This document shows, one piece after another, positions 15,921 to 31,389 of a stretch of DNA of 32,000 bases. Position 1 is the stretch's first letter. Every line of letters begins with the position of its first letter. The notes below the pieces were generated by a model that saw only the letters and a program-made list of their open reading frames with translations, searched no databases and was not told the DNA's origin. This DNA is from an archaeon GW2011_AR10 (lineage in GTDB: Archaea > Iainarchaeota > Iainarchaeia > Iainarchaeales > GW2011-AR10). The position numbers were made by a program, and so were the translations under genes. The stretch lies in the NCBI GenBank assembly GCA_000830275.1, contig CP010424.1, forward strand, positions 420,001 to 452,000. Direction: 5' to 3'.

Positions 15921-16325
15921 CTAATCTTTTCTGCCAAAAATCTTTTTCAAGTAAAGTATTGCAAACACTATAACCGCGGCAGAAACAGCTGCAAGATAAT
16001 AACCTATTCCTATTGCAATGCCAGCTGCCGCCAAAACCCACAAGTCAGCTGCAGTTGTTAGGCCTCTAACCCTGTTCTCTGAGCGAAAAATTGTTCCAGC
16101 TCCAAGGAAGCCTATGCCAGTAACAACTCCTGCAGCAATCCTGCTTGTGTCTGAAGCTCCAACAAACTGCGTTGAAACGATTGTGAAGAGAGTTGCACCA
16201 ATGCAAATTAGCATGTGTGTCCTAAGGCCGGCAGGCTCGTCATCTATTTCTCTTTCAAACCCGATTAGCGCACCTAACCCTGCAGCAAGCAAAAGCCTTA
16301 CAAAAAGGTCAAACTCTGAAAGCAT
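15921..16325 (-). CDS. MgtC/SapB-family membrane protein
   Basis: LLLAAGLGALIGFEREIDDEPAGLRTHMLICIGATLFT is the MgtC signature region. Confidence 0.85.
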   Translation of the reverse strand: MLSEFDLFVRLLLAAGLGALIGFEREIDDEPAGLRTHMLICIGATLFTIVSTQFVGASDTSRIAAGVVTGIGFLGAGTIFRSENRVRGLTTAADLWVLAAAGIAIGIGYYLAAVSAAVIVFAILYLKKIFGRKD

Positions 16326-16361
16326 TCAAAACAATTAGTGAAAAGTTGTTAATAAAGGTTT

Positions 16362-18857
16362 CTAAGCACTCTGCTCTGGCTGGACAAAAGGCTTTTTTTT
16401 GGCAGGAGCTTTGCCTGTTTTACCGGCTTGTTTTGCTGCCTTTAAAGCAGTTTCCTTATACTGTGGTTTTTGTTTTAAAGCGTAAGGCTTTTTAGGCGCA
16501 AATGACTGCTTTTTACTTGCAGCCGGTTTGGATGTTTTTTGCACGCCTTTCTTCAACTGCCCCATTTCCTGTTTTTCCCTTTCAAGCTCAAGGCTTTCCT
16601 TCCAACCCATGCCATGCAACTCAGAAATTCTTTTCTCAAGAACCGCAGACCTTTTTTTGAACTCGCCCTTGGACAGCAGGCCATCCCTTAAGTGAGCATT
16701 TAGTTCCCTTAACCTTGTCTTCAAGGCCTCAACCTCTGCCTCATTTTCCTCAATTTCAAGCAAAGTTTTCACTCTTCTCGCCCTCAAAGACTCAAGGGAA
16801 GCAAGCTCAGCAGCGTACCTATTAGCCAGCTCTGCGTGCTTTTCCTCGCTTATTTTGCCAGCAGTGAAGGCAGTATCTGCCTTTCTTTGAAGCTCTTTCA
16901 CGCTCTGCATTTCAGAGGCAATAGAAAACCTCTTCTCACCCCTCAAAATTGTAATGGTTAACACTATTCCAAACAAGAAAACCGCGCCAGAAAACATGAC
17001 AAGGACACCAAGCATTAAAGGCGAATCAAAAATGTTTGACTGAGAAGGAGCTGGAGCACTTAAACCATTATCCGCCTCAATTATTTCCGACTCATCCAGG
17101 GAAGCAAAGCGCTCATACATTGGAGAGGCAGCCTCAAAAACTTCTTCAGCCAAAGAAACCAGGCCAATGCCGTTCTTCAAGGAATTGACTGCCTGGGTTC
17201 CCTGATTCAATTCCTTATAGTAATTGGCTGAAGCCAAAAAGAACTTGGCGTGGTCCAAGTAAAGCACAGGCCAAGCAAAATCGAAACTTGAACTTAAAAT
17301 CTTTTGCTCCAGCACATTAATCCTCTGCTCCAATTCAGAGTAGAGGCCCTCAACGTTTTTTCCTTCAACAGCTGCCTCGCTTGAAGCAAGCGCTTTAGCT
17401 GAAGCCGAATCAAAAGCCGAAGCAGCATTCCAGCCTAGTTCCCTTTCAACCTTTGCAGCGTTAAGCCTCCTGACAATATCTTCCTTGTCACCAGAAGTGA
17501 GCAGTGTAACAGAGTTCTCTGCTTCAACAATCAAGCTGTCAGCCATTTCCTTGAACGCATCTGTTTTCCTTACACGCTTCACTGACTGCCTTGTTATCTC
17601 ATAGAAATCCTTGGAAACATCATACCATGCAGCAGCAAACTCGTAATCCCTGATTTTCTCGAATACTGCTCCTAAATCAGTGCCATTGCCAGTGTCAACC
17701 ACAATTGTCTGAGTGTTGAGAAGCCTCTCAACGTTTATCTCAGCATAGGTTAAGCGCTGCTGCGCTGAAACATGCCACTCAAAGAAATCAATTGGCACTG
17801 ACTTGTCAAGGTCCATGCGCAGGTTCTCAATGTCTTTGCGCAAAATATCCAGCTTCAGTTCAAGAACCGTAGAATTGAGCGCAAGAATGGATGGGTTGTC
17901 GGAAATATCTCTAACAATCATTGCGTTAACCCTTGCAAGGAACGCGAAGTTTGCGGCGGAGTAAAGGTAGTTCTGGTCGTTTAGGATTTCAGCCTGCCTT
18001 ATTGTCTGCTCTGCATCATTCAAAGTGTCAAGCAGGGTGTTAACCAAGGAAGTGTCCTCAAGCAGTGTTGTTGAAAGAGAAGTGCGGGCGCTCTCGATAA
18101 TTGCTTTTGTTTCCTTCAAATAGTTTGAGGTGAGCTCCTTCATAACCCCCAAGTTTGGCTTATAAGTTATTTCCTGCGGCACAAAGTCAGGCACTGCTTC
18201 CTCTGCTGTCTGGTTAATGTCAATCTCTTCAATGTCAGAGAAAGCATATTTTAGGACTTCATCAATTGTTGAGACTTCCACAACCTTCAAACCAAACTCT
18301 TTCGGAGCATAATCAACCAAGTTAATGCTCTGAACCTTTCCATCAATTTTAACTGTCTGGATGGCCTCGCCCTTTGGAATCATGAACAGTTTAATGCCTG
18401 TGTTTGCTGCTTCCGCTGTTTTCTCAAAAACGCCTCCAACAGGCCCAACGAAACCGTCACTGCTAATTGTGCCAGTAAGGCTTACATTGCTTGGAAGAAC
18501 CTTGCTCTGCAGCATTGAAATAACCAGCAAGCTCATTGCTGCGCCAGCGGATGGGCCCTCAACAAGCGAAGCGTTCGAGGCAATCGAAAACTTGTAGTCA
18601 AAGCTGCTTACCTGCCCGGAATAATTCCTCGCAAGGTTTACTGCTTCTCTCGCGGCATTCTGCGTTGTTGTTCCAACCAGTGGCTCAACTGAGGTCCAAA
18701 CCTTTCCAGTGCCTGGGTCCAAATCAAGCACTAGGTCAGCTGCCAGGCCCTGCCCCTCAGTGGTAACAGCGTAAATCTTCATTTCTCCGTGCTCAACAAC
18801 AGCTAAAACACTTGAAGCGTACAGCAGAACAAACAAAAAAAACAGCAGCCTCTTCAT
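16362..18857 (-). CDS. secreted, C-terminally membrane-anchored Lon (S16)-like serine protease with a long helical ectodomain and a Lys-rich cytoplasmic tail
   Basis: - Signal peptide: MKRLLFFLFVLLYASSVLA.
- S16 domain: VEGPSAGAAMSLL...SLTGTISSDGFVGPVGGVFEKTAEAANTGIKLFMIP aligns with the E. coli Lon catalytic Ser/Lys region.
- TM helix at residues 615-639.
- Start: ATG 18857 preferred (GGTG 5 nt upstream); the ORF track starts one codon earlier at GTG 18860. Confidence 0.8.
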   Translation of the reverse strand: MKRLLFFLFVLLYASSVLAVVEHGEMKIYAVTTEGQGLAADLVLDLDPGTGKVWTSVEPLVGTTTQNAAREAVNLARNYSGQVSSFDYKFSIASNASLVEGPSAGAAMSLLVISMLQSKVLPSNVSLTGTISSDGFVGPVGGVFEKTAEAANTGIKLFMIPKGEAIQTVKIDGKVQSINLVDYAPKEFGLKVVEVSTIDEVLKYAFSDIEEIDINQTAEEAVPDFVPQEITYKPNLGVMKELTSNYLKETKAIIESARTSLSTTLLEDTSLVNTLLDTLNDAEQTIRQAEILNDQNYLYSAANFAFLARVNAMIVRDISDNPSILALNSTVLELKLDILRKDIENLRMDLDKSVPIDFFEWHVSAQQRLTYAEINVERLLNTQTIVVDTGNGTDLGAVFEKIRDYEFAAAWYDVSKDFYEITRQSVKRVRKTDAFKEMADSLIVEAENSVTLLTSGDKEDIVRRLNAAKVERELGWNAASAFDSASAKALASSEAAVEGKNVEGLYSELEQRINVLEQKILSSSFDFAWPVLYLDHAKFFLASANYYKELNQGTQAVNSLKNGIGLVSLAEEVFEAASPMYERFASLDESEIIEADNGLSAPAPSQSNIFDSPLMLGVLVMFSGAVFLFGIVLTITILRGEKRFSIASEMQSVKELQRKADTAFTAGKISEEKHAELANRYAAELASLESLRARRVKTLLEIEENEAEVEALKTRLRELNAHLRDGLLSKGEFKKRSAVLEKRISELHGMGWKESLELEREKQEMGQLKKGVQKTSKPAASKKQSFAPKKPYALKQKPQYKETALKAAKQAGKTGKAPAKKKPFVQPEQSA

Positions 18858-19004
18858 CACTACACCACTTCCGGAGCCATTCTAAAATTTAATAATTAAA
18901 GAAATATAAAATAAACAGGTATGATAAACTGGTATGTGCAAAACTAGAAAAGCCCATGGACTATAGCAAACTATGGGAAAACCCAAGAAAAAAGAAAACA
19001 GGCT

Positions 19005-19313
19005 TCAGCCAAACAATGAGCCAAGCCCTTCAGCAGCTTCCTCTTCGGTTTTTCCCTGCTCTTCCTTTACTTCTTCCTTTTTTGCCTCTGCTTTTCCGCC
19101 TGCATGCGCTGCTGGCTGAACTTGGACAGCCTGTGCAACTGCAGCCTTCTCGATTGCTTCATCTATGTTGACTTCTTTGAGTGAAGCAATGAGTGCCTTT
19201 ACCCTGCTGGCATCTGATTCAATGCCTGCAGCCTTCAGCACTTTGGCCACTGCATCCTCTGTTATGCCCTTCTTGGCAGAGTGCAAAAGCATTGCGCTAT
19301 ACACATACTCCAT
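19005..19313 (-). CDS. rpl12: 50S ribosomal stalk protein P1 (L12e)
   Basis: [19 protein letters not shown]... ending [13 protein letters not shown], the conserved stalk tail. Confidence 0.92.
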
Positions 19314-19317
19314 TTTT

Positions 19318-19324
19318 TCACCTC
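19318..19324 (-). promoter_or_regulatory. Shine-Dalgarno GAGGTGA, 4 nt upstream of the rpl12 ATG
   Basis: Plus-strand tcacctc; minus strand reads GAGGTGAaaaaATG. Confidence 0.6.
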
Positions 19325-19429
19325 GCTTAATTGTAACAACCTAATTAAGTAATTAAGCAACATTTCGTTCACTCATTCCCTGCATTTCTTTTCCATCCAT
19401 ATTCTCACTCCATTTTTGCATTATATTCG

Positions 19430-20302
19430 CTATGGTTTCGCCTCTTTCTTTTCCTCAGGCAAAACTTCAGGCGCAACAGCTTTCAATGAATCAGCATTTG
19501 CCTTTGCCTTTGCAAGCAATTTCGGCATTGTTTCTTCTGTGAAAACCTCTGCCTCGAATGCAACAGCTTTTGCATCATTGAATGCCTTTTGAACCAGCAA
19601 AGGCATTGTCTGCTTAGTGAAGTAACATGCATTGAATGCAAGGTTGAATGCTTTCCTGTGGGCACTGGCAAACTTCTGGAAAACTACCTCAGTGTCAATA
19701 TCCAGGATTTTTGCCTCAAACACTTGGCCGCCTTCAATTGCTGAAACAACGGAGAGGCCAACCTTAACCGGCCTGATGTTCAGCTTTAAAAGCATTCCGG
19801 CAACAGGCTTTGAAACCGCCTGCCCTTTCCTTGTTACAATTTTGTCCTCTGCAATCGCAATGGTGGCACCCTGCACTCTAACACTCAAGCCAGCTGCCTT
19901 AAGGTCACTTAAAGCAGGACCCGGCGGCAAGCCAGTATCGCCTGCAGGCACAACAATGTCTTCCTCCGCAATGTGGCCTTCCTTTGCGGGCATGCTTCCC
20001 TTGTTTTTCTTAAGGAATGAAAACAGCTCAAACGGATTCATTGAAGTAAAAATAACTGCACAGCTTTTGTTAGCGTAACCTGTTAAAGGTGCAACCTTCT
20101 TGTTTTCCTGCAGCGCTTTCTTTATAACCCTTGTCTTTGATACAACAATTGTTCCTTTGCCGCGCAGTTTCTTCCTAATGCCCTGAAACAACGAAGCAGG
20201 AAACATGTTTAAGTCAGCAATAGCAACAACAGGATATGCTTCTGTCAGCCTCTTTATTTCCTGCAGCCCGGCTTCCTTCCATTCCCTGTTATGGCGGGTC
20301 AT
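19430..20302 (-). CDS. rpl10: 50S ribosomal protein uL10 (P0), lacking the conserved C-terminal stalk tail
   Basis: N-terminal REWKEAGLQEIKRL...YPVVAIADLNMFPASLFQGIRKKLRGKG. Three P1-binding helix repeats (FTKQTMPLLVQKA..., FTEETMPKLLAKA...). Ends ...PEEKKEAKP. Confidence 0.9.
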   Translation of the reverse strand: MTRHNREWKEAGLQEIKRLTEAYPVVAIADLNMFPASLFQGIRKKLRGKGTIVVSKTRVIKKALQENKKVAPLTGYANKSCAVIFTSMNPFELFSFLKKNKGSMPAKEGHIAEEDIVVPAGDTGLPPGPALSDLKAAGLSVRVQGATIAIAEDKIVTRKGQAVSKPVAGMLLKLNIRPVKVGLSVVSAIEGGQVFEAKILDIDTEVVFQKFASAHRKAFNLAFNACYFTKQTMPLLVQKAFNDAKAVAFEAEVFTEETMPKLLAKAKANADSLKAVAPEVLPEEKKEAKP

Positions 20303-21171
20303 TCTGCATCATCCTCCGATGCAGCTGCCACAGTTTTCTGCTTTACTGGTTTTCCAGCAGGCCCCTGCTTTTTTTCATGGCTCTTTAATGGTTTCTCTGC
20401 CTTGGTTTTCTGCGAAACTAATCTGCTGCTTTTTTCAGCGCCCTCTGGCTTAGCTTTGTGGAAAATTTTTTCAGTGCCTTCTGGCTTGGTTTTGTGGGAA
20501 ACCATAATGCCTTCCTTTGCGCCAATCTTAATCGGTGGACCCATTGAAAGCTTTAGGTAAACTGACTTTATGTTCTGCTCTCTTTTCTCAAGGCCCTGCA
20601 CGACAGCATTGAAAACAGCTATAACATTATCTGCAACTTTCCTGTCCTCATCCTTTTCCCTGCCAACGGTTACATGCACTAATGGCATGAACTTGCCTTT
20701 TTTGTTGGAAACGTTGAGTGAAGTGCTTGACTTTGAAATCATTTCCTCGAATGAATTGATGGAAGGCTGAATCGGCTTAGGCATTTTTCCTCTCGGGGCA
20801 AGCTGCTGCCCAAGATACTTTCCCACAGCAAGTATTGCCTGGCCCTCGGCAAGCAGGACATTATAGTTTGAGACCAATTCCTCAACGTCTTTTTTCTTGA
20901 GGCTCGGAATCTGCTCATCCATTATGATTTTCGAGGCCTTGCCCTTTAGCTGTGAGGCAAAGTCTTTGTCCTTTACAAATACAAGCGTTTTTACCTCGCT
21001 ATGCTTTCCAGTTGGATTAGGCATCGTAACCTCAACGTCAACCCTGTTCTCTGCCTTCTTGAAGTCAATGCCCTTGAAGTTGATAGTCAAGTCAATGCTT
21101 TGAACAAAGTTTCGCTTCTTGGATGCATCACGCATTCTCTGGAGTGCCTCAAGCACTTCTTGGTCCTTCAA
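20299..21171 (-). CDS. rpl1: 50S ribosomal protein uL1 with a ~70-aa Lys/Pro/Glu-rich C-terminal extension
   Basis: RNFVQSIDLTINFKGIDFKK...VEVTMPNPTGK...VYLKLSMGPPIKIG is a uL1 core. TTG start with AGGAGGT upstream. The stop overlaps the rpl10 ATG (ATGA). Confidence 0.9.
   Translation of the reverse strand: MKDQEVLEALQRMRDASKKRNFVQSIDLTINFKGIDFKKAENRVDVEVTMPNPTGKHSEVKTLVFVKDKDFASQLKGKASKIIMDEQIPSLKKKDVEELVSNYNVLLAEGQAILAVGKYLGQQLAPRGKMPKPIQPSINSFEEMISKSSTSLNVSNKKGKFMPLVHVTVGREKDEDRKVADNVIAVFNAVVQGLEKREQNIKSVYLKLSMGPPIKIGAKEGIMVSHKTKPEGTEKIFHKAKPEGAEKSSRLVSQKTKAEKPLKSHEKKQGPAGKPVKQKTVAAASEDDAE
20425..20496 (-). repeat. 2 x 36-nt tandem repeat inside the uL1 extension (HKTKPEGTEKIF / HKAKPEGAEKSS)
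   Basis: Units 20425-20460 and 20461-20496 match at 28 of 36 positions, counted by eye. Confidence 0.8.
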
Positions 21172-21288
21172 TTCAAATACCTCCTAACCAAAAGGTTAGT
21201 TCAAGCGGTGCCAAAAACAGGCAAAATATTAATTAATTCTTAAAAATAAAGGTTTAAATTACTTCTCTTGGGCTTTGCTTTTCGCTTT

Positions 21289-21780
21289 TTAGCTTTTCTT
21301 CGCTTCTTCAGGGAAAACAGAATCCCATTTTCCTTCATCGAACTCTCTCTGGATTTCCTTTGCTTTCTTTCCCTCAACTGTTACGCCCATGCTGTTGCAG
21401 GTGCCAATTATTTCTCTGACCGCGCTTTTAATCTTGTAAGAGGAAAGGTTGTCGAGCTTCATTTCAGCAAGCTCCTTCACTTGACTCATTGAAATGTTGC
21501 CAACGTTTTGTTCCTTTGGGTTCGCTGCTCCCTTCTGGAGGCTTATTTCCTTTTTGATTAATGCGCTTACCGGAGGGCTTCCGACTTCCACTTCAAAGCT
21601 CTTGGAGGATGCATCAACCTTTACTTTAACCGGAACCTTCATTCCGGAAAAACCCTTTGTTTTGTCGTTAATGGTGCTGACAACTTGGCTGATGTTCACC
21701 CCTAATGGGCCCAAAGCAGGCCCCAATGGTGCACCAGCACTTGCCTTGCCCCCCTCAACCAAAACAGAAATCTCAGGCAT
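21289..21780 (-). CDS. rpl11: 50S ribosomal protein uL11
   Basis: GGKASAGAPLGPALGPLGVNISQVV...VPVKVKVD is the classical uL11 N-terminal domain. Confidence 0.93.
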   Translation of the reverse strand: MPEISVLVEGGKASAGAPLGPALGPLGVNISQVVSTINDKTKGFSGMKVPVKVKVDASSKSFEVEVGSPPVSALIKKEISLQKGAANPKEQNVGNISMSQVKELAEMKLDNLSSYKIKSAVREIIGTCNSMGVTVEGKKAKEIQREFDEGKWDSVFPEEAKKS

Positions 21781-21820
21781 AAAAATTCTCTCTTTTTTCT
21801 TTTCCTATTTGCCGCAAATT

Positions 21821-22261
21821 CTACTCCTTGATTATCCTTATGTGCTCCGCACTAATTGTAACAGGAATTTTTACTGCTGCTTCAAGCAGCTCAACCGTTA
21901 CCTCTTCCTTGGTGTCATTGACTCTTATTACCTTTGCCCTCTCCCCTTTAAAAGGCCCGGCAATTAGCTCAACCTTCATGTCGGGCTTGATGCTCTTCAT
22001 TAAGGGCTTTGCCTCAAGGAGAGAAGAAAGCTCCTCAATTTTAACTTCGCCCCCAACAATGCCTCGGCCCTTTACGTGAGAAGTGTTTGCAATGCCCCTT
22101 CGCACAGTCATCTCGTTGTCTGCCTCAATAAGGATGTAACCCTTTAAGCCAGGAATAACCGAAACCGAGTAAATGTTAAGGCCCTCCTTGCTTATCTTGT
22201 TCGACATAATGTCTGTAACAAGGCTTTCCTGCCCAACCGTTGTCCTTATCGTGAAAATCAC
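21821..22261 (-). CDS. spt5: transcription elongation factor Spt5 (archaeal NusG)
   Basis: NGN domain (IFTIRTTVGQE...GYILIEAD) plus KOW motif (GPFKGERAKVIRV). GTG start with AGGTGG upstream. Canonical position between secE and rpl11. Confidence 0.9.
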   Translation of the reverse strand: MIFTIRTTVGQESLVTDIMSNKISKEGLNIYSVSVIPGLKGYILIEADNEMTVRRGIANTSHVKGRGIVGGEVKIEELSSLLEAKPLMKSIKPDMKVELIAGPFKGERAKVIRVNDTKEEVTVELLEAAVKIPVTISAEHIRIIKE

Positions 22262-22359
22262 TCAAACCACCTAAAAACAATAAAAAAAACCCAAAGAAAA
22301 CAGGCAAAAAAATTCAAAACAATTAAAAAAGTTAAACTGAAAAGGGTTAAAAAGGCTTT

Positions 22360-22536
22360 CTATAAGCCCAGCTTCAGAAACCTGAAAACAAAGGTTAAAA
22401 CAAAGCCAAGGGCTGCAATCAATATTATGCCAATGCCGGTTATTTTCGCCATCTGCTTGTACTCGCTCCAGTCAGGCTTCTTCGAAACCGAAAAAATCCT
22501 CTTGCTCTGCTCCACAAACTGCCCGAAATCAAACAT
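22360..22536 (-). CDS. secE: preprotein translocase SecE / Sec61-gamma (58 aa; below the ORF-track cutoff)
   Basis: Hand translation: MFDFGQFVEQSKRIFSVSKKPDWSEYKQMAKITGIGIILIAALGFVLTFVFRFLKLGL. It has the KKP..EY..AK.T..G motif plus a single TM. It sits between ftsZ and spt5, as in other archaea. Confidence 0.8.
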   Translation of the reverse strand: MFDFGQFVEQSKRIFSVSKKPDWSEYKQMAKITGIGIILIAALGFVLTFVFRFLKLGL

Positions 22537-22635
22537 TTTATCCCAACAAATCTTGGATGAGAAGAAATAAAAAAAGAAGGGGTTAAGGAAAAATCACGCC
22601 ACGAGAAAAATTGTATTATTGGTTCGCTAAGAAAT

Positions 22636-23772
22636 TCAGTCAGCAAAGCGGATGCCCAAATCAATTTGGCCCTCGTAGCCTTTTCCTGGCTCTGCCACAG
22701 AATCAAGGTACGGGAACCTGCCGCCGGCAACAACAATCATTGCCTGAATCTGGTTGCGCGGCACATTATCATCAATCATTGCACCCCAAATGATGTGCGC
22801 ATTAGGGTGGATTTTGGCTGAAACAGCTTCAACAATCATTTCTGCCTCGCGCAAAGTCATGTCAGAGCCGCCAACAACATTAACAAGTGCTCTGTTGGCA
22901 CCACTTATGTCCACATCCAGGAGCGGTGAAGTCAAAGCGTTTTCAACTGCTTCAAGCGCCCTTGCATCAGTTGCTTTCTGGGAGTCGCTTTCACCCAAAC
23001 CAATCATTGCAGCCCCGCCTTTCTGGAGAATGGTGCGCAAATCTGCAAAGTCAAGGTTGATTAAGCCTGGCTTTGTGACCAGTTCAGTTATGCCTTTGAC
23101 CGCGTTGGTTAAAACTTCGTCTGCAACCTTGAAAGCAGCATTCACCGGCAAATCAGGAGCGATTTCAAGAATTTTGTCGTTCGGAATAACTATTACAGTG
23201 TCAACGTTTTCCTTGAGCCTTGCCAATCCCTCCAACGCATTCTCGGTTCTCTTCCTTCCCTCAACCGTGAAAGGCAACGTAACAACACCAATCGTCAATG
23301 CCTTTATTGACTTCGCGATTTCAGCAACAACAGGAGAAGCACCAGTGCCAGTTCCTCCACCCATGCCGCAGGTAATGAACACCAAATCGCTTTGCTTGAG
23401 CAGTTCCTTAAGCTCTTCAAGGGATTCCTGAGCAGCGCTCTCTCCAACCATCGGATCAGAGCCAGAGCCAAGGCCCCTAGTGAGCTTTCTGCCTATGAGA
23501 ATTTTCCTGTCAGCTTTGGCTTTCAATAAGTCTTGCGCGTCAGTGTTAATTGCGTAAGTTTCAGCGCCTGAAACGCCTATTTCAGACATTCTCGTAATAG
23601 TGTTGCCGCCGCCACCGCCAACCCCAATAACCCTGATTTTTGCTTGGCCAACCTCAAGAATCTTAAGTAGCTCTCTTTCCTCTATGTCAGTTCTCTTCCT
23701 TGATTTAGGTGCAGGGTTAAGGCCTTGCTGGTCTCTGACCCTCTTCAAAGCCTTGTCAACAACAGTTTTCAC
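22636..23772 (-). CDS. ftsZ: cell division GTPase FtsZ
   Basis: VIGVGGGGGNTITRM and GMGGGTGTGASPVVAEIAK tubulin signature. GTG start with AAGGAG 8 nt upstream. Confidence 0.95.
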   Translation of the reverse strand: MKTVVDKALKRVRDQQGLNPAPKSRKRTDIEERELLKILEVGQAKIRVIGVGGGGGNTITRMSEIGVSGAETYAINTDAQDLLKAKADRKILIGRKLTRGLGSGSDPMVGESAAQESLEELKELLKQSDLVFITCGMGGGTGTGASPVVAEIAKSIKALTIGVVTLPFTVEGRKRTENALEGLARLKENVDTVIVIPNDKILEIAPDLPVNAAFKVADEVLTNAVKGITELVTKPGLINLDFADLRTILQKGGAAMIGLGESDSQKATDARALEAVENALTSPLLDVDISGANRALVNVVGGSDMTLREAEMIVEAVSAKIHPNAHIIWGAMIDDNVPRNQIQAMIVVAGGRFPYLDSVAEPGKGYEGQIDLGIRFAD

Positions 23773-23971
23773 GTTACTACTCCTTCAAAGCGGAAAAAGC
23801 CGAAGTATATATGTTCTCCCTTAAATAAATTTAAATTAATACCCTTTCCCTGAGAGGATTTGCAACTGGGAAGTGGTTAAAAGGCTTACAGCCACGCTGC
23901 AGGGCCTAGAAATTTTGAAAACCGCAGAATTACCTGATTCAAAAAAATTAAAGCTGTTTGCCATCGATTCA

Positions 23972-23979
23972 TTTAAATA
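23972..23979 (+). promoter_or_regulatory. TATA box TTTAAATA upstream of prs
   Basis: Consensus archaeal TATA about 33 nt before ATG 24009. It lies inside the longer TTG-started ORF of the track, which argues for the ATG start. Confidence 0.5.
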
Positions 23980-24008
23980 AAACTAATTCGTTAATAATCC
24001 TGAACAAA

Positions 24009-24893
24009 ATGCCTAAAGCAATTGCAGTGCTGAGCAAAGGCAAAGGCTTTGCAGCGAAGCTCTCCGGGAAGCTTGGAATCAAAAAGCTTCCGCTCAAGTT
24101 GGATGTATTCCCAGACGGCGAATTATACGTAAGGTTTTTGGGTAGCGTGAAAGGAAAAACCATTTACATGGTGCAGAGCCTGAGCGGTGCTCCAAACAAT
24201 GCCCTGCTGGAGTTGTTCCTTGCCGCAAGAACAGCAAAAGAGCTCGGCGCAAAAAAAGTTTTCGGAATACTCCCATACCTTGGTTACATGCGCCAAGACA
24301 AAAGGTTTAAGGCAGGGGAATGCTTTTCCGCGAAAGAGGTTGCGTGGCTGTTGAGCAACTGCCTTGACAGGCTTTACACCTTTGACGCGCACCTCCACAG
24401 AATCAAATCATTGAACAAAATTTTCAGGATTCCGGCAAAAAATCTTAGTTCTGCTAAGCCAATAGCCGCATACATCAAGAAAAAATTTTCCAGCAAAAAT
24501 ACAGTTATTGTTGGCCCGGACATTGAGAGCTCGCAGTGGGCTGCAAAAATCGCGAAAAGCATTGGCTTTGAGTCAACAATTCTGCGCAAGAAGAGGTTCC
24601 ATTCAAGGAAGGTTAAAGTGCACGTTCACAAGGAACTTGAATGGAAAGGAAAAAACGTTGTCATCGTTGACGACATTGTGAGCTCTGGCCACACAATGGC
24701 TGAAGCAATCAAGGCAGTGAAAAAGCGAGGAGTCAAAGAAGTGCATTGCATCTGCATTCACGCAGTCTTCTCCGAGGATGCGCTGCGCAAAATCAGAAAA
24801 GCAGGCGCAAAAAGCATTGCAAGCTGCAACACGATTCCTCATGCAACAAATAAAATTGATGTGAGCGGTGAAATGGCGGAAGAACTTCGATGA
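24009..24893 (+). CDS. prs: ribose-phosphate pyrophosphokinase (PRPP synthase)
   Basis: FPDGELYVRF, ALLELFLAARTAKELGAKKV, ILPYLGYMRQDKRF, and the PRPP loop VVIVDDIVSSGHTM. Confidence 0.9.
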   Translation: MPKAIAVLSKGKGFAAKLSGKLGIKKLPLKLDVFPDGELYVRFLGSVKGKTIYMVQSLSGAPNNALLELFLAARTAKELGAKKVFGILPYLGYMRQDKRFKAGECFSAKEVAWLLSNCLDRLYTFDAHLHRIKSLNKIFRIPAKNLSSAKPIAAYIKKKFSSKNTVIVGPDIESSQWAAKIAKSIGFESTILRKKRFHSRKVKVHVHKELEWKGKNVVIVDDIVSSGHTMAEAIKAVKKRGVKEVHCICIHAVFSEDALRKIRKAGAKSIASCNTIPHATNKIDVSGEMAEELR

Positions 24894-25486
24894 AAAGAGT
24901 ACTGTATGTTCCTGTAACAGGACGAGGAAGAAAACCAAAACTACGCAGGCTTAGTAAATCTTCTAGTTATTCTGGAGTTGAACGTGAAGTTGTCAAGCAA
25001 TTAAGAGGAACCTTAAAACCGGCAAAGGCTATTGCAAAAGACTTTGGGATTCCTAGGAGCATGGTTACAACAATAAATCGCAGGCATGGCTGCAGAAGCA
25101 GATATATTTCTTACCTTGTGGGCCAACGACTTGGATTGAAATGGCGAGAACTCCCAAAAAGAAACCTTCTCTCCGTAGAACATAAAAATAGAATTATTAA
25201 GCAAAATCTTCGATTCATTAGAAATTTTGCCGGAAAGTACAGGGAGTGGGGCACAAAACAAGACAGGGAGGATTTAATGCAGCAGGCTACTTTAATGGCA
25301 TTTGAAGCACTGGATCATTATGACCCGGCTCTTTGCAGCGAAAGGGTCTTTGTTTTACTTGTTACAAGGAAAGTAATCAGGGCAACTGGTTATGACATTC
25401 GCTTGCAGAAAAAACTTTTCAGCAGTCTTGATGAATTCCCTTTGCTTGAATCCCATGCAACCGGAAAAGAAAAACCACATATTTAA
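24890..25486 (+). CDS. hypothetical DNA-binding protein: N-terminal HTH plus sigma-70 region-2-like domain
   Basis: ATG overlaps the prs stop (ATGA). Residues ~40-66, KPAKAIAKDFGIPRSMVTTINRRHG, look like an HTH. Residues ~98-166, IIKQNLRFIRNFAGKY...REDLMQQATLMAFEALDHYDP...VFVLLVTRKVIRA, parallel sigma-70 region 2 ([16 protein letters not shown]...[18 protein letters not shown]...). Confidence 0.6.
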   Translation: MKRVLYVPVTGRGRKPKLRRLSKSSSYSGVEREVVKQLRGTLKPAKAIAKDFGIPRSMVTTINRRHGCRSRYISYLVGQRLGLKWRELPKRNLLSVEHKNRIIKQNLRFIRNFAGKYREWGTKQDREDLMQQATLMAFEALDHYDPALCSERVFVLLVTRKVIRATGYDIRLQKKLFSSLDEFPLLESHATGKEKPHI

Positions 25487-25537
25487 ATACAAGTTTGCTA
25501 CATAATTGTTTTAAGCCGCAAAGGCCGGAGTCCTCTG

Positions 25538-25548
25538 TTTTTATTTTT
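25538..25548 (+). terminator. oligo-T tract (tttttattttt) after the sigma-like gene
   Basis: Lies about 50 nt after the stop at 25486 and is preceded by a short GC stem (gccgcaaaggc). Confidence 0.45.
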
Positions 25549-25563
25549 CCGCGAGAAAGAAGG

Positions 25564-25571
25564 TTTAAATA
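25564..25571 (+). promoter_or_regulatory. TATA box TTTAAATA for the pyr operon
   Basis: Consensus TATA with a purine-rich BRE-like agaaagaagg upstream, about 30 nt before the pyrB start at 25602. Confidence 0.55.
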
Positions 25572-25601
25572 TCTTTAATGTCAATAATTTGAAGGGTTGG
25601 A

Positions 25602-26549
25602 TTGAAAGGAAAAAACCCGGACAAATTCTCGCTGACAGACGTTGTTTCAATCGCTGATTTTTCCAGAGCAGACATCGAATTTGTTTTGCGCAGGGCAGCG
25701 GAAATGGAGAAAACGCCGCAAAGCAAAAAAGAAAAAATCCTGCACGGCAAAACTGTTGCCTCGCTTTTCTTTGAGCCAAGCACTCGCACAAGGCTGAGTT
25801 TTGAAACCGCGATTCAAAACCTTGGCGGGAAAGTAATTGGCTTTCCAGAAGCTGAAGTTACCTCGGGCCAGAAAGGGGAAACAACAAGCGATGCAATCAG
25901 GATAATTGCCAATTACGCTGACATTATTGTTATGCGGCATTACATTGAGGGCGCGGCACGCAGGGCAGCAGAGATTAGCAGCAAGCCAATAATTAATGCT
26001 GGCGACGGCTCGAACCAGCACCCAACGCAAACCCTTCTTGACCTTTACACAATAAAAAAAGAGTTCGGAAAAATCGACGGATTAAGCATCGGAATGGTTG
26101 GAGACCTGAAGTATGGCAGAACTGTTCACAGCCTAGCTTACGCGCTTGCACTGTTCAAAGAAATAAAGCTTTACCTTATTGCGCCTGATTCGCTTAAAAT
26201 GCCACGACACATAATTGAGGACATAAAAGGAAGGGTTGCAGTGCATGAAACCTCTGACTTGAACAAGTTTTTGCCGGAGGTTGACATACTCTATGCAACG
26301 CGCATCCAGAAGGAAAGGTTTCCGGATGCAGTTGAGTACGAGAAAGTGAAAAACGTTTACATTATCAGGAAAAAAACCCTCCAGAACACAAAAAAAGGGT
26401 TCAGGATAATGCACCCGCTGCCACGCGTAAATGAAATCTCCACAGACCTTGATGACACGGAAGCGGCAATTTACTTTAAGCAGGCCGCAAACGGCATCCC
26501 AATCAGAGAAGCAATCCTTTCAATTCTTGCAGGGGCGAAGAAGAAATGA
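25602..26549 (+). CDS. pyrB: aspartate carbamoyltransferase catalytic subunit
   Basis: FFEPSTRTRLSFE, HPTQ and HPLPR motifs. TTG is the first possible start after an in-frame stop at 25590. Confidence 0.93.
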   Translation: MKGKNPDKFSLTDVVSIADFSRADIEFVLRRAAEMEKTPQSKKEKILHGKTVASLFFEPSTRTRLSFETAIQNLGGKVIGFPEAEVTSGQKGETTSDAIRIIANYADIIVMRHYIEGAARRAAEISSKPIINAGDGSNQHPTQTLLDLYTIKKEFGKIDGLSIGMVGDLKYGRTVHSLAYALALFKEIKLYLIAPDSLKMPRHIIEDIKGRVAVHETSDLNKFLPEVDILYATRIQKERFPDAVEYEKVKNVYIIRKKTLQNTKKGFRIMHPLPRVNEISTDLDDTEAAIYFKQAANGIPIREAILSILAGAKKK

Positions 26550-27028
26550 AGGAAAAAGATTCCGGGAAAGAGAAAATGGGGGAAAAAAAGATTTACATCA
26601 CTCCAATAAAGGAAGGAACTGCAATTGACCATCTTGCGCCAGGTGCAGCGCTGAAAATACTTGAAGTTCTTGACCTAAAGGAGTTTCCCGTAACAGCTGC
26701 AATGAATGTTGGCAGCAAAAAAATGGGGAAAAAGGACCTTATTTTCATTGAGGGAAAAAAGCTCTCAGGAAAGGAAACAGAAAAGATTGCGCTGATTGGG
26801 AAAGGTGGAACCCTCAACATCATCAGCAATGCAAGCATTGTGAAAAAAGTGCAGCTAAACTATCCCGAAGAGGTCAGCGGCATAATCAGGTGCATTAATC
26901 CTAAATGCATTTCAAATGCCGAGGGAATTCCTGCAAAGTTCTCGATTAAGAGTGAGCCGCTGAAGGCAACCTGTTTTTACTGTGAAACAAGAATGAATGA
27001 GAACGAAATAATTAATTCAATAAAGTGA
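26546..27028 (+). CDS. pyrI: aspartate carbamoyltransferase regulatory subunit
   Basis: ITPIKEGTAIDH, plus a C-terminal zinc domain CINPKCIS...CFYCE. ATGA overlap with pyrB; ATG 26576 is an alternative start. Confidence 0.9.
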   Translation: MKEKDSGKEKMGEKKIYITPIKEGTAIDHLAPGAALKILEVLDLKEFPVTAAMNVGSKKMGKKDLIFIEGKKLSGKETEKIALIGKGGTLNIISNASIVKKVQLNYPEEVSGIIRCINPKCISNAEGIPAKFSIKSEPLKATCFYCETRMNENEIINSIK

Positions 27029-27032
27029 GCCC

Positions 27033-27944
27033 ATGCTTGAAACGAATTTGGCAGGAATCAAGCTGAAAAACCCGACAGTATTGGTTTCTGGAATCCTTGG
27101 CGTGACAGGGCAAAGCATGGCTCGCGCAGCAAAAGGCGGAGCGGCAGCAGTAACAATGAAAAGCGTGGGCCCGAAGCCTTGGCTTGGCTACCATAACCCA
27201 ACGGTTGTTGCAAACGAGCACTTCATGTTGAATGCTGTTGGCCTGCCTTCCCCTGGCTACAAAAACAATGAAGCAGAATGGAATGGCTTAGGGGAACTGC
27301 AGAAAAAAGACGTTAGGGTTTTCGCAAGCCTTTACGCTTGGACGCTGGAAGAAATGGAGGAAATTGCTGAAAGCATAGCTGCAAGGAAGCCTGACTTGAT
27401 TGAAATTGATTTGAGCTGCCCGCACATGAAGGAAGCAGGAGAATTCGCTTTCAACCCTGAGCAGGCAGCTGCAGCTGTCAGCGCGGTTAAAGGAAAAGCA
27501 GGAAAGGTTCCAGTGTTTCCAAAGCTGAGCCCGAACACTAACCGAATGGTTGAGATTGCAAAGGCATGCGAGGAGGCAGGAGCTGACGGCATTTCAGCAA
27601 TCAATACTGTTGGAGGAATGGCAATTGACATCGAAATGAGGAAGCCTGTGCTTGCAAACAAAACAGGGGGCATTTCTGGCCCTGCAATCAAGCCGGTTGC
27701 AATCAAGGCGGTTTATCAGTTGTATGATGCCTTGAAAATTCCTGTTCTTGGAATGGGAGGCTGCACCAATGGAAGGGACGCAATTGAATTCATTCAAGCA
27801 GGAGCCTCAGCTGTGGGCATTGGCACGGCAGTATATTACCGCGGCATTGATGTTTTCAGCAAAGTATGCTTGGAAATGCAGCAGTGGATGAAAGAAAATT
27901 CTGTTAAAAGCGTGAAGGAACTGGTGGGGGCAGCGCATGAATAA
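27033..27944 (+). CDS. pyrD: dihydroorotate dehydrogenase, class 1B catalytic subunit
   Basis: LKNPTVLVSGILG, MKSVGPKP, NAVGLPSPGY, DLSCPH, GGISGPAIKPVA. Confidence 0.92.
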   Translation: MLETNLAGIKLKNPTVLVSGILGVTGQSMARAAKGGAAAVTMKSVGPKPWLGYHNPTVVANEHFMLNAVGLPSPGYKNNEAEWNGLGELQKKDVRVFASLYAWTLEEMEEIAESIAARKPDLIEIDLSCPHMKEAGEFAFNPEQAAAAVSAVKGKAGKVPVFPKLSPNTNRMVEIAKACEEAGADGISAINTVGGMAIDIEMRKPVLANKTGGISGPAIKPVAIKAVYQLYDALKIPVLGMGGCTNGRDAIEFIQAGASAVGIGTAVYYRGIDVFSKVCLEMQQWMKENSVKSVKELVGAAHE

Positions 27945-28779
27945 AAACGTTTTAAGCGAATTGCATCGCATGGATTTCCCGAAGGCAGCCAGCATTGAAA
28001 GGGTTGAAACCGAAAACGGGAACACGAAAACTTTTTACTTTAAAAACGAGTGGAATGCAAGGCCGGGGCAGTTCTTCATGGTGTGGCTGCCTGGCATTGA
28101 TGAGCTGCCGATGAGCCCATCGCTTCTTGGAAAAGAGTTGGCAATAACGGTTGAGGGCAGAGGCAATGGAAGCAGAAAAATGCTTGAGTGGAGAAAAGGC
28201 GACTTGGCGGGATTGCGCGGGCCATATGGCAGCACTTTTTCGTTGAAAGCCAGAAAGCCTTTGATTGTTGCAGGCGGCATTGGCGTAACACCATTGGTGA
28301 CGCTGGCGCAGGCATTCTTTACTGAGAAGGGCATTAAGCCGGAGTTTGTTTACGGTGCTCGCACCAAAAGACAGTTCATTCTGCTAAAGCACATCAAAAA
28401 ATATTCAAACCTGCATTTAATGACTGACGATGGCAGCACAGGAGGAAAAGGTTTAAGCACTGACAAAATGCGGGAGCTGCTTGGAAAAGGAAAGTTTGAT
28501 TCTGTTTACGCTTGCGGGCCAGAGCAGATGATGGTGAAAGTGCTTGAAATAGCTGGAAAAAATAAGCTGCCGTGCGAGTTAAGCTTTGAAAGGTTCATGA
28601 AATGCGGTTTCGGTGTATGCGGCCACTGCATGCTTGATGACAAAATCGTGTGCATTGACGGCCCTGTCCTGAGTGCAGCGCAGCTAAAAAAGTCAGAAGA
28701 CTTCGGAAAATACGCAATTATTAGGACGGGAAAGAGGGTTCCGCTGAAAGAATTTTTTGAGTGGAAAGACGATGACTAA
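27937..28779 (+). CDS. pyrK: dihydroorotate dehydrogenase electron-transfer subunit (FAD/2Fe-2S)
   Basis: Ferredoxin-reductase-like fold with the C-terminal cluster CGFGVCGHC...C. 8-nt overlap with pyrD. Confidence 0.88.
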   Translation: MNKNVLSELHRMDFPKAASIERVETENGNTKTFYFKNEWNARPGQFFMVWLPGIDELPMSPSLLGKELAITVEGRGNGSRKMLEWRKGDLAGLRGPYGSTFSLKARKPLIVAGGIGVTPLVTLAQAFFTEKGIKPEFVYGARTKRQFILLKHIKKYSNLHLMTDDGSTGGKGLSTDKMRELLGKGKFDSVYACGPEQMMVKVLEIAGKNKLPCELSFERFMKCGFGVCGHCMLDDKIVCIDGPVLSAAQLKKSEDFGKYAIIRTGKRVPLKEFFEWKDDD

Positions 28780-30088
28780 TGCGGATTTGCTGCTTCAGAA
28801 CTGCACAGTTCTGAGGAAAGGGAAACCAGAGCAGTCAAACGTTTCGGTTAAGAACGGGCTAATTGAAAGTATTTCAAGTGAGGCAGTGCAGGCAAAGAAA
28901 ACCGTTGACTGCTTGGGAAAACTGGTTATGCCTGCAGGAATTGACGTGCACGTGCATTTCAGGGTGCCGGGAGCAACGCAAAAAGAGGACTGGAAAACAG
29001 GGAGCAGGGCAGCGCTTGCAGGGGGCATTGCAACAGTGCTCGACATGCCTAACAATAAGCCGGCAGCCATAACAGGCAAAGTGCTTGCATTTAAGAGGAA
29101 AACCGCTGCAAGGGATTCGCTCTGCAACTACGGCTTTCATTTCGGTGCAACGCCTGAAACTATTGGCACTATCGCAAAGTTAGTGCACGTTAATTCAGTC
29201 AAGCTTTACATGGGGGCCAGCACAGGCAACCTGTTGTTTGGTTCAGGCGCAAAACTCAAGCAGTTGTTTTATGCATCGAAGCAGAAGAACCTTGTTGTGT
29301 GCGTTCACGCTGAGGACGAGCAATTAATAGTTGAGAACTCAAACAGGTTCATGAAAAAAACTGATCCGCTGATTCACGGAATGGTTAGAAGCAGGGAAGC
29401 AGAAATTCTGGCGGTTGAGAAAGCTTTAATCGCGCAGGAGGAAACCGGCAACAGGCTGCATTTCTGCCACATAAGCTGCAGGGACAGCATTGAAATGATT
29501 GCTGAAGCAAAAGAGGGAGGCAGAAAAATAAGCTGTGAAGTAACCCCCCACCATCTTTTCTTGGAAGAGAAAAGCATTGAGAAGCTGCGGAATTTTGGGA
29601 AAGTCAATCCTCCGCTGAGGCAGCAGAACGATGTAAATGCATTGTGGAAAGGCATTGCTGACAAAACTGTTGATGTGGTTGCATCAGACCACGCACCGCA
29701 CTTGCCGCTGGAAAAGAAAAAAAGCTACTGGAGTGCTCCGTCAGGAATTCCGGGCATTGAAACAATGCTGCCCTTGCTTTTCAATGCAGCAAGCAGTGGC
29801 AGGCTAAGCCTTGAAAGAGTAAACGAACTGGTGTGCGGGAACCCTGCAAAAATTTTTGGCATTAAAGGAAAAGGGTTTCTGGAGAAGGGAATGGACGCTG
29901 ACCTCATAGTGGTGGACTTGAACAGGAAAAAACATGTAAAGAATGAGGAGCTTTTCACTAAATGTGGGTGGAGCCCTTGGAACGGGGAAACCTTTAAAGG
30001 GGTTGTCGAGAAAACAATTGTTAGAGGCAATATTGTGTTCGACAATGCCTTGTTTGCTTCTGATTTCAGGGGAAAAGAGGTTTTTTGA
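28772..30088 (+). CDS. pyrC: dihydroorotase
   Basis: GIDVHVHFRVPG...KEDWKTGSRAALAGGIATVLDMPN, and later VASDHAPH. ATG 28772 (MTNADLLLQNC) is preferred over the TTG at 28757. Confidence 0.9.
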   Translation: MTNADLLLQNCTVLRKGKPEQSNVSVKNGLIESISSEAVQAKKTVDCLGKLVMPAGIDVHVHFRVPGATQKEDWKTGSRAALAGGIATVLDMPNNKPAAITGKVLAFKRKTAARDSLCNYGFHFGATPETIGTIAKLVHVNSVKLYMGASTGNLLFGSGAKLKQLFYASKQKNLVVCVHAEDEQLIVENSNRFMKKTDPLIHGMVRSREAEILAVEKALIAQEETGNRLHFCHISCRDSIEMIAEAKEGGRKISCEVTPHHLFLEEKSIEKLRNFGKVNPPLRQQNDVNALWKGIADKTVDVVASDHAPHLPLEKKKSYWSAPSGIPGIETMLPLLFNAASSGRLSLERVNELVCGNPAKIFGIKGKGFLEKGMDADLIVVDLNRKKHVKNEELFTKCGWSPWNGETFKGVVEKTIVRGNIVFDNALFASDFRGKEVF

Positions 30089-30684
30089 TGGATGAAAAAA
30101 AGATTTGCTTGGACCTTTTCGAGATTGGCGCAATAAAGTTCGGAAGCTTTACGCTGAAAAGCGGGAAAAAAAGCCCGATTTATATTGACTTGAGGGTGCT
30201 TGTTTCTTATCCGAGAGTGCTTAAAGATGTAGCGGCAGCTCTTTATGACAAGACAAAGGGCCTTGAGTTTGACCGCATTGCAGGAATTCCTTACGCGGCA
30301 ATCGCAATAGCAACAGCTGTAAGCCTTCACGCAGAGGTGCCAATGATTTACCCAAGAAAAGAGCAGAAAGAGTACGGCACCAAAAGGGCAATTGAAGGGG
30401 TTTTCGAGAAAGGTGAAACAGTGCTTGTGTACGATGACCTGATTACCACCGGGGCAAGCAAGTTTGAGGCGATTGCTCCACTGGAAGAGGCAGGGCTGAA
30501 AGTTAAGGACATTGTGGTTTTGGTTGACAGGGAGCAGGGCGGAAAACAAGAGCTTGCAGTAAAAGGCTACAAGCTGCATGCAGTCATGACAATTTCAAAG
30601 CTGCTTGAATGCCTGATGGAAAGCAGAAAAGTAACAGAAAAACAGTTCAGGGAAGTAAAAAAATATTTGGATGGAGAAAAATGA
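30088..30684 (+). CDS. pyrE: orotate phosphoribosyltransferase
   Basis: FTLKSGKKSPIYIDLR and the PRPP loop VLVYDDLITTGASK. ATG 30088 has GAGGT 6 nt upstream and a TGATG overlap with pyrC. Confidence 0.92.
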   Translation: MDEKKICLDLFEIGAIKFGSFTLKSGKKSPIYIDLRVLVSYPRVLKDVAAALYDKTKGLEFDRIAGIPYAAIAIATAVSLHAEVPMIYPRKEQKEYGTKRAIEGVFEKGETVLVYDDLITTGASKFEAIAPLEEAGLKVKDIVVLVDREQGGKQELAVKGYKLHAVMTISKLLECLMESRKVTEKQFREVKKYLDGEK

Positions 30685-31388
30685 GTTGGCCTATAAATAA
30701 GAACAAGAGCATTATTCCTGCATGCGACTTTTCTTCGCTTAAAAAACTAGGGGAAATCGTGGAAACCACGCATGACTTGAAGGGCGTTGGAGCATACAAA
30801 ATCGGTTTCCAGCTGGCATTATCGCATGGGCTGCCAAAAGTGGTTAAAGAAGTAAGGGAATTCACTGACAAGCCAATAATTTATGACCACCAGAAAGCCG
30901 GCACTGACATTCCTGAAACAGGGAAAGGGTTTTCGGGGGTTTGCAGCAGTGCAGGAATTGATGCCGTTATTCTTTTCCCTTTTGCTGGCATTGAAACAGA
31001 GGCTGAATGGATTCTGGCATGCAGGGAAGCACGCCTTGGAGTAATAGTTGGCGGGGAAATGACTCACAAGGGCTTTCTTGAAAAAGAAGGGGGCTTCATT
31101 TCAGAGAAGGAGGCAGAAAAAATTTATTTTACGGCAATTGAGAATGGGGTGAAAGATTTTGTTGTTCCGGGCAACAAGCCGGAAAAAATCAGCCATTACA
31201 GGAAACTGATTGATGGGAAGGTAGCTGAAGCAACTCTTTACTCTCCAGGCCTTGTAGCGCAGGGAGGAAAAATAACTGATTCTGGAAAAGCTGCAGGCAA
31301 AAAATGGCACGCAATTGTTGGAAGAGCAATTTACGAATCCGGGAATCCAAGAAAGGCAGCTGAAGAGCTCTCCAAGGAACTCAAGTAA
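30681..31388 (+). CDS. pyrF: orotidine 5'-phosphate decarboxylase (divergent)
   Basis: ATGA overlap with pyrE. TIM-barrel-like pattern: IIPACDF..., YKIGFQL, IIYDHQKAGTDIPET, LYSPGL, HAIVGRAIYESGNPRKAAEEL. Position at the end of the pyr operon. Confidence 0.78.
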   Translation: MSWPINKNKSIIPACDFSSLKKLGEIVETTHDLKGVGAYKIGFQLALSHGLPKVVKEVREFTDKPIIYDHQKAGTDIPETGKGFSGVCSSAGIDAVILFPFAGIETEAEWILACREARLGVIVGGEMTHKGFLEKEGGFISEKEAEKIYFTAIENGVKDFVVPGNKPEKISHYRKLIDGKVAEATLYSPGLVAQGGKITDSGKAAGKKWHAIVGRAIYESGNPRKAAEELSKELK

Positions 31389-31389
31389 T

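Follow-up and report, generated by a model that had tools for sequence, protein, structure and literature searches.

The 32,000-nucleotide (nt) stretch of DNA analyzed here (positions 420,001 to 452,000 of contig CP010424.1 from archaeon GW2011_AR10, assembly GCA_000830275.1; "the window" means this whole stretch) carries, between the ribose-phosphate pyrophosphokinase gene (prs) and the pyr operon, a gene for a 198-residue protein in which a helix-turn-helix (HTH) is followed by a domain resembling region 2 of the bacterial sigma-70 factors (sigma2). The protein is 100% identical to P0017, which is AJF60002.1 / QT03_C0001G0506 of archaeon GW2011_AR10. Both profile comparisons and structure modeling supported the central claim of an earlier reading of this DNA, made from the letters alone (the original prediction), that a genuine sigma-70 region-2-type domain is encoded in an archaeal chromosome, with the HTH on its N-terminal side and no region 4 behind it, and this order of parts was found to be kept in a small family of relatives. 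The genes and features of the locus are listed below in window coordinates, together with the predicted local distance difference test (pLDDT) and predicted template modeling (pTM) scores of the structural model.

24890..25486, forward strand: gene for the HTH and sigma2-like protein, 198 aa, from the open reading frame (ORF) list; AlphaFold2 model of the full-length protein with mean pLDDT 83 and pTM 0.72
24920..24958, forward strand: AT-hook-like basic tail at the N-terminus, GRGRKPKLRRLSK, residues 11-23; predicted disordered, pLDDT ~50-60 over residues 1-27
24971..25087, forward strand: three-helix HTH, residues 28-66 (helices 28-40, 45-52 and 56-66); pLDDT ~97
25088..25174, forward strand: family-specific linker, residues 67-95, with G-C-R-S and G-L-x-W-x-x-L-P, seen in the alignments; no Pfam family matched
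25175..25432, forward strand: sigma-70 region-2-like helical domain, residues 96-181 (predicted helices 96-105, 107-115, 123-143 and 151-181)
25433..25483, forward strand: C-terminal tail, residues 182-198, no domain; pLDDT ~52, no Pfam or NCBIfam match
24009..24893, forward strand: prs (ribose-phosphate pyrophosphokinase), Pfam Pribosyltran_N and Pribosyltran
23972..23979, forward strand: TATA box TTTAAATA, ~30 nt upstream of the prs ATG, from the sequence
25538..25548, forward strand: oligo-T tract TTTTTATTTTT, 3' of the sigma-like gene, from the sequence
25564..25571, forward strand: second TATA box TTTAAATA, ~30 nt before pyrB, which starts at 25602, from the sequence

The ATG of the sigma-like gene (24890-24892) shares bases with the TGA of prs (24891-24893) as ATGA, as had been claimed, and the start assigned to prs, ATG 24009, agrees with a sister contig from another assembly (L001, described below), in which prs is called as a gene of 294 aa. 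Because of the ATGA overlap and the single TATA box upstream, prs and the sigma-like gene are probably co-transcribed, and the TATA box at 23972-23979 is the probable promoter of the pair. The oligo-T tract and the TATA box that the original prediction had described between the gene and pyrB were both found there. Since archaeal transcription terminates at T-runs, the tract TTTTTATTTTT is a probable archaeal-type terminator. The TATA octamers upstream of prs and of pyrB are identical, and the second one would serve as the promoter of the pyr operon, separate from that of prs. The downstream gene order is pyrB-pyrI-pyrD-pyrK-pyrC-pyrE-pyrF, and pyrB, which was identified by Pfam, begins 115 bp behind the sigma-like gene. 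A scan for promoters and terminators of the bacterial type gave only background-level results. On the other side of prs, an AT-rich, TATA-like stretch (TTAAATAAATTTAAATTAAT, 23821-23840) lies ~50-70 nt upstream of the divergent ftsZ gene (start 23772, minus strand); it probably acts as the promoter of ftsZ, and part of it is complementary to the TATA region of prs.

The sigma2-like domain, the HTH and the linker

The stretch on which the sigma-like assignment was originally based (IIKQNL...KVIRA, placed at residues ~98-166) occupies residues 102-165 (nt 25193-25384). Pfam analysis yielded a match to Sigma70_r2 (PF04542) over residues 103-161 and profile positions 2-59 of 71, with an E-value of 6e-6 and a score of 26.4 bits against a gathering cut-off of 24, a marginal pass by 2.4 bits; the trimmed core of the protein scored 27.2 bits against the same profile. 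The PHROG sigma-factor family phrog_1740 also matched (E=1e-5), and cyanobacterial SigA ranked first, with marginal E-values, in a comparison with PDB sequences. Alignment by hhalign of the first sigma2-like module of the family (module 1) with region 2 of E. coli RpoD, RpoE, RpoS, RpoH and FliA gave a probability of 82.6% and an E-value of 9.7e-6 over 49 columns, which correspond to regions 2.1-2.2.

The pLDDT of the full-length model was ~97 across most of residues 30-160. When the whole protein was submitted to Foldseek, sigma factors were ranked on top, but the global superposition was poor (E >= 0.1), and a model of the domain alone (residues 90-187, pLDDT 88.6) was used instead. All 50 of the top 50 PDB matches to the domain-only model were sigma2 domains, with probabilities of 0.77-1.00, and most of them superposed with a root-mean-square deviation (rmsd) of ~2 Å over ~72 residues at a sequence identity of ~20%; 5h6x_A, for example, gave template modeling (TM) scores of 0.65/0.68 and an rmsd of 1.8 Å. 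The viral structure library BFVD contributed partial matches to phage sigma factors and contained no protein of the same architecture. A TFB/cyclin-like fold was also considered and was rejected; a sole stray cyclin match, with a probability of 0.07, appeared in the whole-protein search. From these sequence comparisons and models we conclude that residues ~96-181 are a sigma-70 region-2 domain, a conclusion carried by convergent evidence of moderate strength and not by one strong match.

The original prediction had described a parallel with E. coli RpoD "almost motif for motif", and the RpoD sequence given for that purpose agreed almost completely with the actual E. coli gene. The parallel was borne out for regions 2.1-2.2, where D128, L129 and Q131 of the window protein align with D403-L404-x-Q406 of E. 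coli (the D-L-x-Q motif of region 2.2), and failed for region 2.3, where the aromatic residues are replaced by aliphatic ones. In E. coli sigma-70, Y430, W433 and W434 are the residues that separate the strands and recognize the -10 element. Their equivalents in the window protein are F154-V-L-L-V-T159, so that at most one aromatic is kept, and the tryptophan pair is replaced by aliphatic residues in all 14 copies in the family. The positions that the family does conserve in this domain (L141, Y144, F154, V155, L157 and V158) belong to the hydrophobic core, and D-L-x-Q is kept in three of the 14 module-1 copies.

The lack of a region 4 was likewise confirmed. The sigma-like part is followed by a 33-residue tail of low model confidence in which neither Sigma70_r4 nor r4_2 is matched, and residues 182-198 of this tail occupy the place of region 3/4 in a sigma factor. 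The matches returned by NCBIfam analysis were almost without exception to sigma models, every one under its cut-off; the sigma-70 model TIGR02937 scored 27 bits against a cut-off of 42.9. Sigma factors are the bacterial solution to promoter recognition, and archaea use TBP, TFB and TFE. These factors operate in archaea with a single polymerase of the archaeal type (PMC7289017). The window protein is not a promoter-melting sigma subunit, because region 4 and the -10 melting residues are absent, the NCBIfam sigma model failed and the polymerase of the host is presumably archaeal.

On the N-terminal side, the very basic stretch noted earlier, GRGRKPKLRRLSK, was located at residues 11-23, and a KSSS tetrapeptide directly behind this tail is missing from a sister population. 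Conservation in the family is highest in the HTH (L38, I48), and most of the few conserved positions, among them the invariant R69, lie either there or in the linker. The stretch quoted as a "resolvase/sigma-r4-like HTH", KPAKAIAKDFGIPRSMVTTINRRHG, spans residues 43-67. It belongs to a real HTH, for which this is a fair generic label, but its identity with region 4 is not established: the HTH of the window core scored 12.7 bits against Sigma70_r4 (E=0.09, cut-off 24.1) and passed neither this cut-off nor that of HTH_7 (23.8 bits), a match to CENP-B_N was also sub-threshold, and hhalign gave probabilities of 57% for E. coli region 4 and 30% for region 3. The HTHs of the relatives matched HTH_7, HTH_23 and HTH_28 weakly, and those of P0014 matched the HTHs of ISL3 transposases; P0003 passed Sigma70_r4 at 26.5 bits, its best stretch covering no more than 22 residues. 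Since the identity with region 4 is not established, a true permutation of sigma4 and sigma2 is not established either.

Two cysteines tend to co-occur in the family, Cys68 in the G-C-R-S motif of the linker (25091-25093) and Cys149 in the loop E-L-C-S-E between regions 2.2 and 2.3 (25334-25336). Among 13 family members, five have both, five have neither and three have one only, a distribution that is not statistically secure; the pair could represent a domain contact or a redox pair.

Relatives and genomic setting

When 1.84 billion cluster representatives were scanned exhaustively with HMMER, 16 matches with E < 1e-3 were obtained. P0011 and P0013 proved to be unrelated repeat proteins whose scores were sums over their repeats, and they were excluded from the family; the 14 true matches are the query's own cluster and 13 relatives (P0002-P0010, P0012 and P0014-P0016), which align with residues ~28-170 of the window protein with E-values of 5e-22 to 9e-4 and are 25-40% identical over the matched stretches. 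These stretches run through the HTH and then the sigma-like part, in the order of the query, so that the family shows an HTH, a linker with C-R-S and G-L-x-W-x-x-L-P, and a sigma2-like module with A-L-D-x-Y-x-P-E-L...F-V-L-L-V. A homology search based on a word index, run with the single protein as well as the family profile, brought up nothing beyond the near-identical cluster and a single known relative, and a back-translated pattern scan with the single protein retrieved nothing in the GTDB species genomes.

Most relatives carry one or two additional N-terminal winged helices of the Lrp/MarR-like type, and P0014 carries three copies of a transposase-type HTH. When the full-length family profile was compared with the PDB, only Lrp, MarR and Z-alpha winged helices were found, through the extra N-terminal winged HTH that the window protein lacks. 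Five relatives (P0006, P0008, P0009, P0015 and P0016; loci L007, L016 and L019) have a second sigma2-like module behind the first. The second modules of P0008 (28.6 bits) and P0009 (34.6 bits) pass Pfam Sigma70_r2 alone, and those of P0006 (15.8 bits) and P0016 (18.3 bits) fall under its cut-off, as does the single module of P0014 (21.3 bits); Sigma70_r2 signals are thus present in five other family members, two of them over the cut-off. The two modules are related to each other according to hhalign (77%, E 2e-5, 70 columns). By inspection, the second modules display a pattern [ED]-D-[IV]-x-Q and I-A-x-N that resembles extracytoplasmic function (ECF) sigma factors. Of the two modules of the tandem members, the second is closer to the canonical form and ECF-like, and the first is a degenerate copy.

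The archaeal setting of the gene was confirmed by the genes upstream, which encode Spt5 (NGN-KOW), SecE, L11, L1, L10 with the archaeal insert, the acidic P1 protein, LonB and FtsZ; all marker genes in the window are archaeal. Near-identical copies of the protein are labelled Candidatus Diapherotrites (DPANN), and the exact protein is present on 19 contigs, one of them of 1.24 Mb. L001, from an independent assembly of the Rifle aquifer, is colinear with positions 15149-32000 of the window (16.9 kb) at 99.52% nucleotide identity and spans both junctions of the gene, which excludes the chimeric join that the original prediction had named as a possible refutation. The only difference between L001 and the window within the gene is a 12-nt in-frame deletion (window 24953-24964; L001 ~9804), by which KSSS is lost from the serine-rich disordered tail; the L001 copy carries zero substitutions. 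The 90% cluster of the query consists of members 97-100% identical to one another, that is, of one population, and contains no orthologue of intermediate divergence.

Eight distinct loci of homologs were compared, besides the near-identical sister contig. Seven of them had the following neighbors: Hjc, an archaeal primase-like Toprim protein and Rpr2; L35Ae and RNase HII; AdoHcyase; TyrRS, a class-I tRNA synthetase, with a cytidylyltransferase; complex I subunits, prefoldin, L34e and the thermosome; Rpo11 and LonB; and ThyX and HMG-CoA reductase. The eighth locus was on a short contig and was uninformative. Archaeal marker genes such as Hjc, Rpr2, L35Ae, L34e, thermosome, prefoldin, Rpo11 and LonB were present at five of the eight loci, and the other three were uninformative in this respect. 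The phyletic range of the family rests on cluster names and neighboring genes: the family is rare and fast-evolving, every contig on which it has so far been seen has archaeal or uninformative neighbors, and its named members are metagenome-assembled genomes (MAGs) of Diapherotrites. An origin from a mobile element or virus was considered and rejected, as no viral gene, integrase or transposase was found among the neighbors of the gene or of its homologs. Two small pairs of toxin-antitoxin-like genes were seen at some distance from two of the homologs.

Other features of the window were recorded in passing. A tRNA gene of 107 nt (2236-2342, forward strand) was matched by Rfam with 44.1 bits and missed by ARAGORN, and presumably carries an archaeal intron. 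An SMC/Rad50-type ATPase of 1538 aa (9310-13926, forward strand) contains an intein near its N-terminal P-loop (Intein_splicing, residues 46-583) with a LAGLIDADG homing-endonuclease domain (LAGLIDADG_3, residues 371-449). Two paralogous Glyco_trans_1_3 glycosyltransferase genes (3081-4130 and 4130-5206, both minus strand) overlap by one base, and three ORFs, at 5184-6008 (minus strand), 6061-7557 and 8449-9249 (both forward strand), of 273-274, 498 and 266 aa, are without any Pfam match. The pyrD gene, which is a single intact gene of 303 aa at 27033-27944 of the window, is split into 40 aa and 262 aa at 11872-12785 of L001, probably by a frameshift or a sequencing error in L001.

Interpretation and alternative explanations

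The explanation to which we give somewhat better than even chances is that the window protein is a rare, lineage-specific DNA-binding transcription regulator, and not a sigma subunit, in which a sigma2 domain has been exapted. Its parts are, in order, the basic tail, the three-helix HTH, the family-specific linker (C-R-S ... G-L-x-W-x-x-L-P) and the sigma2-derived helical domain. The latter derives from region 2 of the bacterial sigma-70 family and would have been exapted as a scaffold, that is, as a structural or protein-interaction module. Sequence-specific DNA binding would be conferred by the HTH, with the AT-hook-like tail possibly helping. The protein would be co-expressed with prs from the shared promoter, and its targets are not demonstrably the neighboring genes of nucleotide metabolism.

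Several observations weigh against this explanation. The E-values of the domain-only Foldseek matches were just 0.04-0.35; weak E-values are expected for a small helical domain. The trimmed-core family profile found nothing meaningful among PDB sequences and did not retrieve sigma factors. The D-L-x-Q core-binding motif kept in the window protein makes contact with a polymerase conceivable. A search for an operator in the prs and pyrB promoter regions found no common repeat or palindrome beyond the TATA boxes. The G+C content of the gene is 0.40, with 0.32 at third codon positions (GC3) against 0.44-0.53 in its neighbors; the low GC3 is compatible with a foreign ancestry, with weak selection or with low expression, and is not decisive.

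Although the gene lies between prs and the pyr operon, with the ATGA overlap on one side and the 115-bp spacing before pyrB on the other, a dedicated local regulator of prs and pyrBIDKCEF, in a position analogous to that of PyrR upstream of bacterial pyr operons, appears doubtful. The arrangement is kept in the sister population, but at 99.5% identity this population provides no independent support, and none of the eight distinct homolog loci adjoins prs or pyr genes. The link with nucleotide metabolism proposed in the original prediction therefore comes down to position, the two promoters sharing TATA boxes alone, and a role in nucleotide metabolism is unsupported beyond this one species. Such a local regulator would be a special case of the exapted regulator favored above, with little support of its own.

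It is also possible, but unlikely, that the protein acts on the archaeal polymerase in a sigma-like manner, with the sigma2 domain docking on the clamp coiled-coil of Rpo1N (A') and the HTH reading a promoter-proximal element, so that the polymerase would be recruited or blocked together with TFE and Spt4/5 or in competition with them. The clamp coiled-coils of archaeal Rpo1N (A') and bacterial beta-prime are homologous, sigma2 binds the clamp helices of beta-prime, and the D-L-x-Q segment of sigma-70 contacts the core polymerase. The region 2.1-2.2 pattern is kept in the window protein, including D128-L129-x-Q131, and the second modules of the longer relatives keep the ECF-like [ED]-D-[IV]-x-Q. 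A part of sigma-like proteins of DPANN archaea in transcription was moreover left open by Castelle et al. 2021 (PMC8204110). Set against this are the retention of D-L-x-Q in only three of the 14 module-1 copies, the concentration of family conservation at buried hydrophobic positions, and the absence of the melting residues and of region 4. The more specific proposal, that the sigma2-derived domain was retained in the archaeal lineage by docking on the clamp coiled-coil while its own HTH targets it to promoters, is improbable.

A sigma gene that was acquired horizontally from a bacterium or phage and is now decaying without a function would account for the low GC3, for the rarity and strong divergence of the family and for the loss of the functional sigma residues. 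We regard this as quite improbable: the reading frame is intact in every sampled population, with an in-frame indel in the disordered tail as the sole difference, the same succession of parts is kept by relatives that share only 25-40% identity with the query over the matched stretches and lie in different genomic contexts, and the fold is predicted with high confidence. The narrow Pfam margin, the NCBIfam score (27 against 42.9 bits), Foldseek E-values above 0.03 and the failure of the family profile to find sigma factors in the PDB could, finally, be read as a chance resemblance of an unrelated helical bundle, or the gene as an assembly chimera. This is hardly credible, as Pfam, PHROGs, hhalign and Foldseek all converge on sigma2 and on nothing else, independent Sigma70_r2 signals recur in other members of the family, and the colinearity of L001 over both junctions and the 19 contigs with the exact protein argue against a faulty join.

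A sigma2 domain kept in archaeal chromosomes, in a rearranged architecture unable to function as a classical sigma factor, would clearly exemplify how a core module of bacterial transcription is exapted. It also puts a concrete case with structural backing beside an earlier, bare report of sigma-70-like genes in DPANN archaea. If the domain is no more than the scaffold of an HTH regulator, which we judge to be the likelier outcome, the protein would be a modest addition to the lineage-specific transcription factors of archaea. If it does contact the clamp, experiments on it could address how far the sigma2-clamp interface is transferable between the two polymerase lineages. Docking on the clamp would place a polymerase contact of the bacterial sigma type on an archaeal, eukaryote-like enzyme, a natural hybrid of both initiation systems, and would give a handle on the question of whether sigma2-clamp recognition is older than the split between bacteria and archaea.

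Comparison with known systems

The suggestion in the original prediction that such a family had not been described in archaea did not hold in this form. Genes of the sigma-70 class (fam00359) were reported by Castelle et al. 2021 in DPANN genomes, mainly of Woesearchaeota; mis-binning was ruled out, no anti-sigma factors were found, and the mechanism and the part in transcription were left open (PMC8204110). In addition, the UniRef name of the window protein is already "RNA polymerase sigma-70 region 2 domain-containing protein". A literature search found no description of the HTH-linker-sigma2 architecture, of the tandem sigma2 variants or of the lost melting residues, and none of a small family of which the named members are MAGs of Diapherotrites. 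The likeness to fam00359 consists of the presence in a DPANN chromosome of a sigma domain of the bacterial type, without an anti-sigma partner and with an unclear role (PMC8204110). Compared by description only, the two differ in that the paper names neither the window protein nor an HTH-then-sigma2 architecture, and in that fam00359 is mainly from Woesearchaeota, whereas the named members of the family described here are from Diapherotrites.

With the sigma2 domains (regions 2.1-2.4) of bacterial sigma factors of groups 1-3 and of ECF factors such as E. coli RpoE, the window protein shares a predicted fold that superposes with an rmsd of ~2 Å over ~72 residues on RpoS, SigA and sigma-70, and of ~3.5 Å on the RpoE domain, and a recognizable region 2.1-2.2 pattern (N-L-R-x-I...A-x-K-Y...D-L-x-Q...A-L-D-x-Y-D-P). 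In contrast to bacterial sigma factors, it has no region 3/4, carries aliphatic residues in place of the region 2.3 aromatics, has its HTH in front of the domain and is found in an archaeal host, presumably with an archaeal polymerase. Sigma region-2-like modules without a covalently attached C-terminal region 4 are represented by B. subtilis RsoA, the partner of SigO, and by gp55 of phage T4; both act with the bacterial core polymerase and have kept the promoter-opening function. Compared by description only, they share with the window protein the region-2-like module that lacks an attached region 4, and the window protein differs in its own N-terminal HTH and its archaeal host.

Archaeal regulators with an HTH of the sigma4/LuxR type are also known, including Tfx, Bat/HTH_10 and the LuxR solos (PMC5413776). 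They resemble the window protein in that domains annotated as sigma-derived serve as ordinary DNA-binding modules in archaeal transcription factors (PMC5413776). These regulators have the region-4-type HTH and no region 2, whereas in the window protein it is region 2 that is the secure part and the HTH that is generic.

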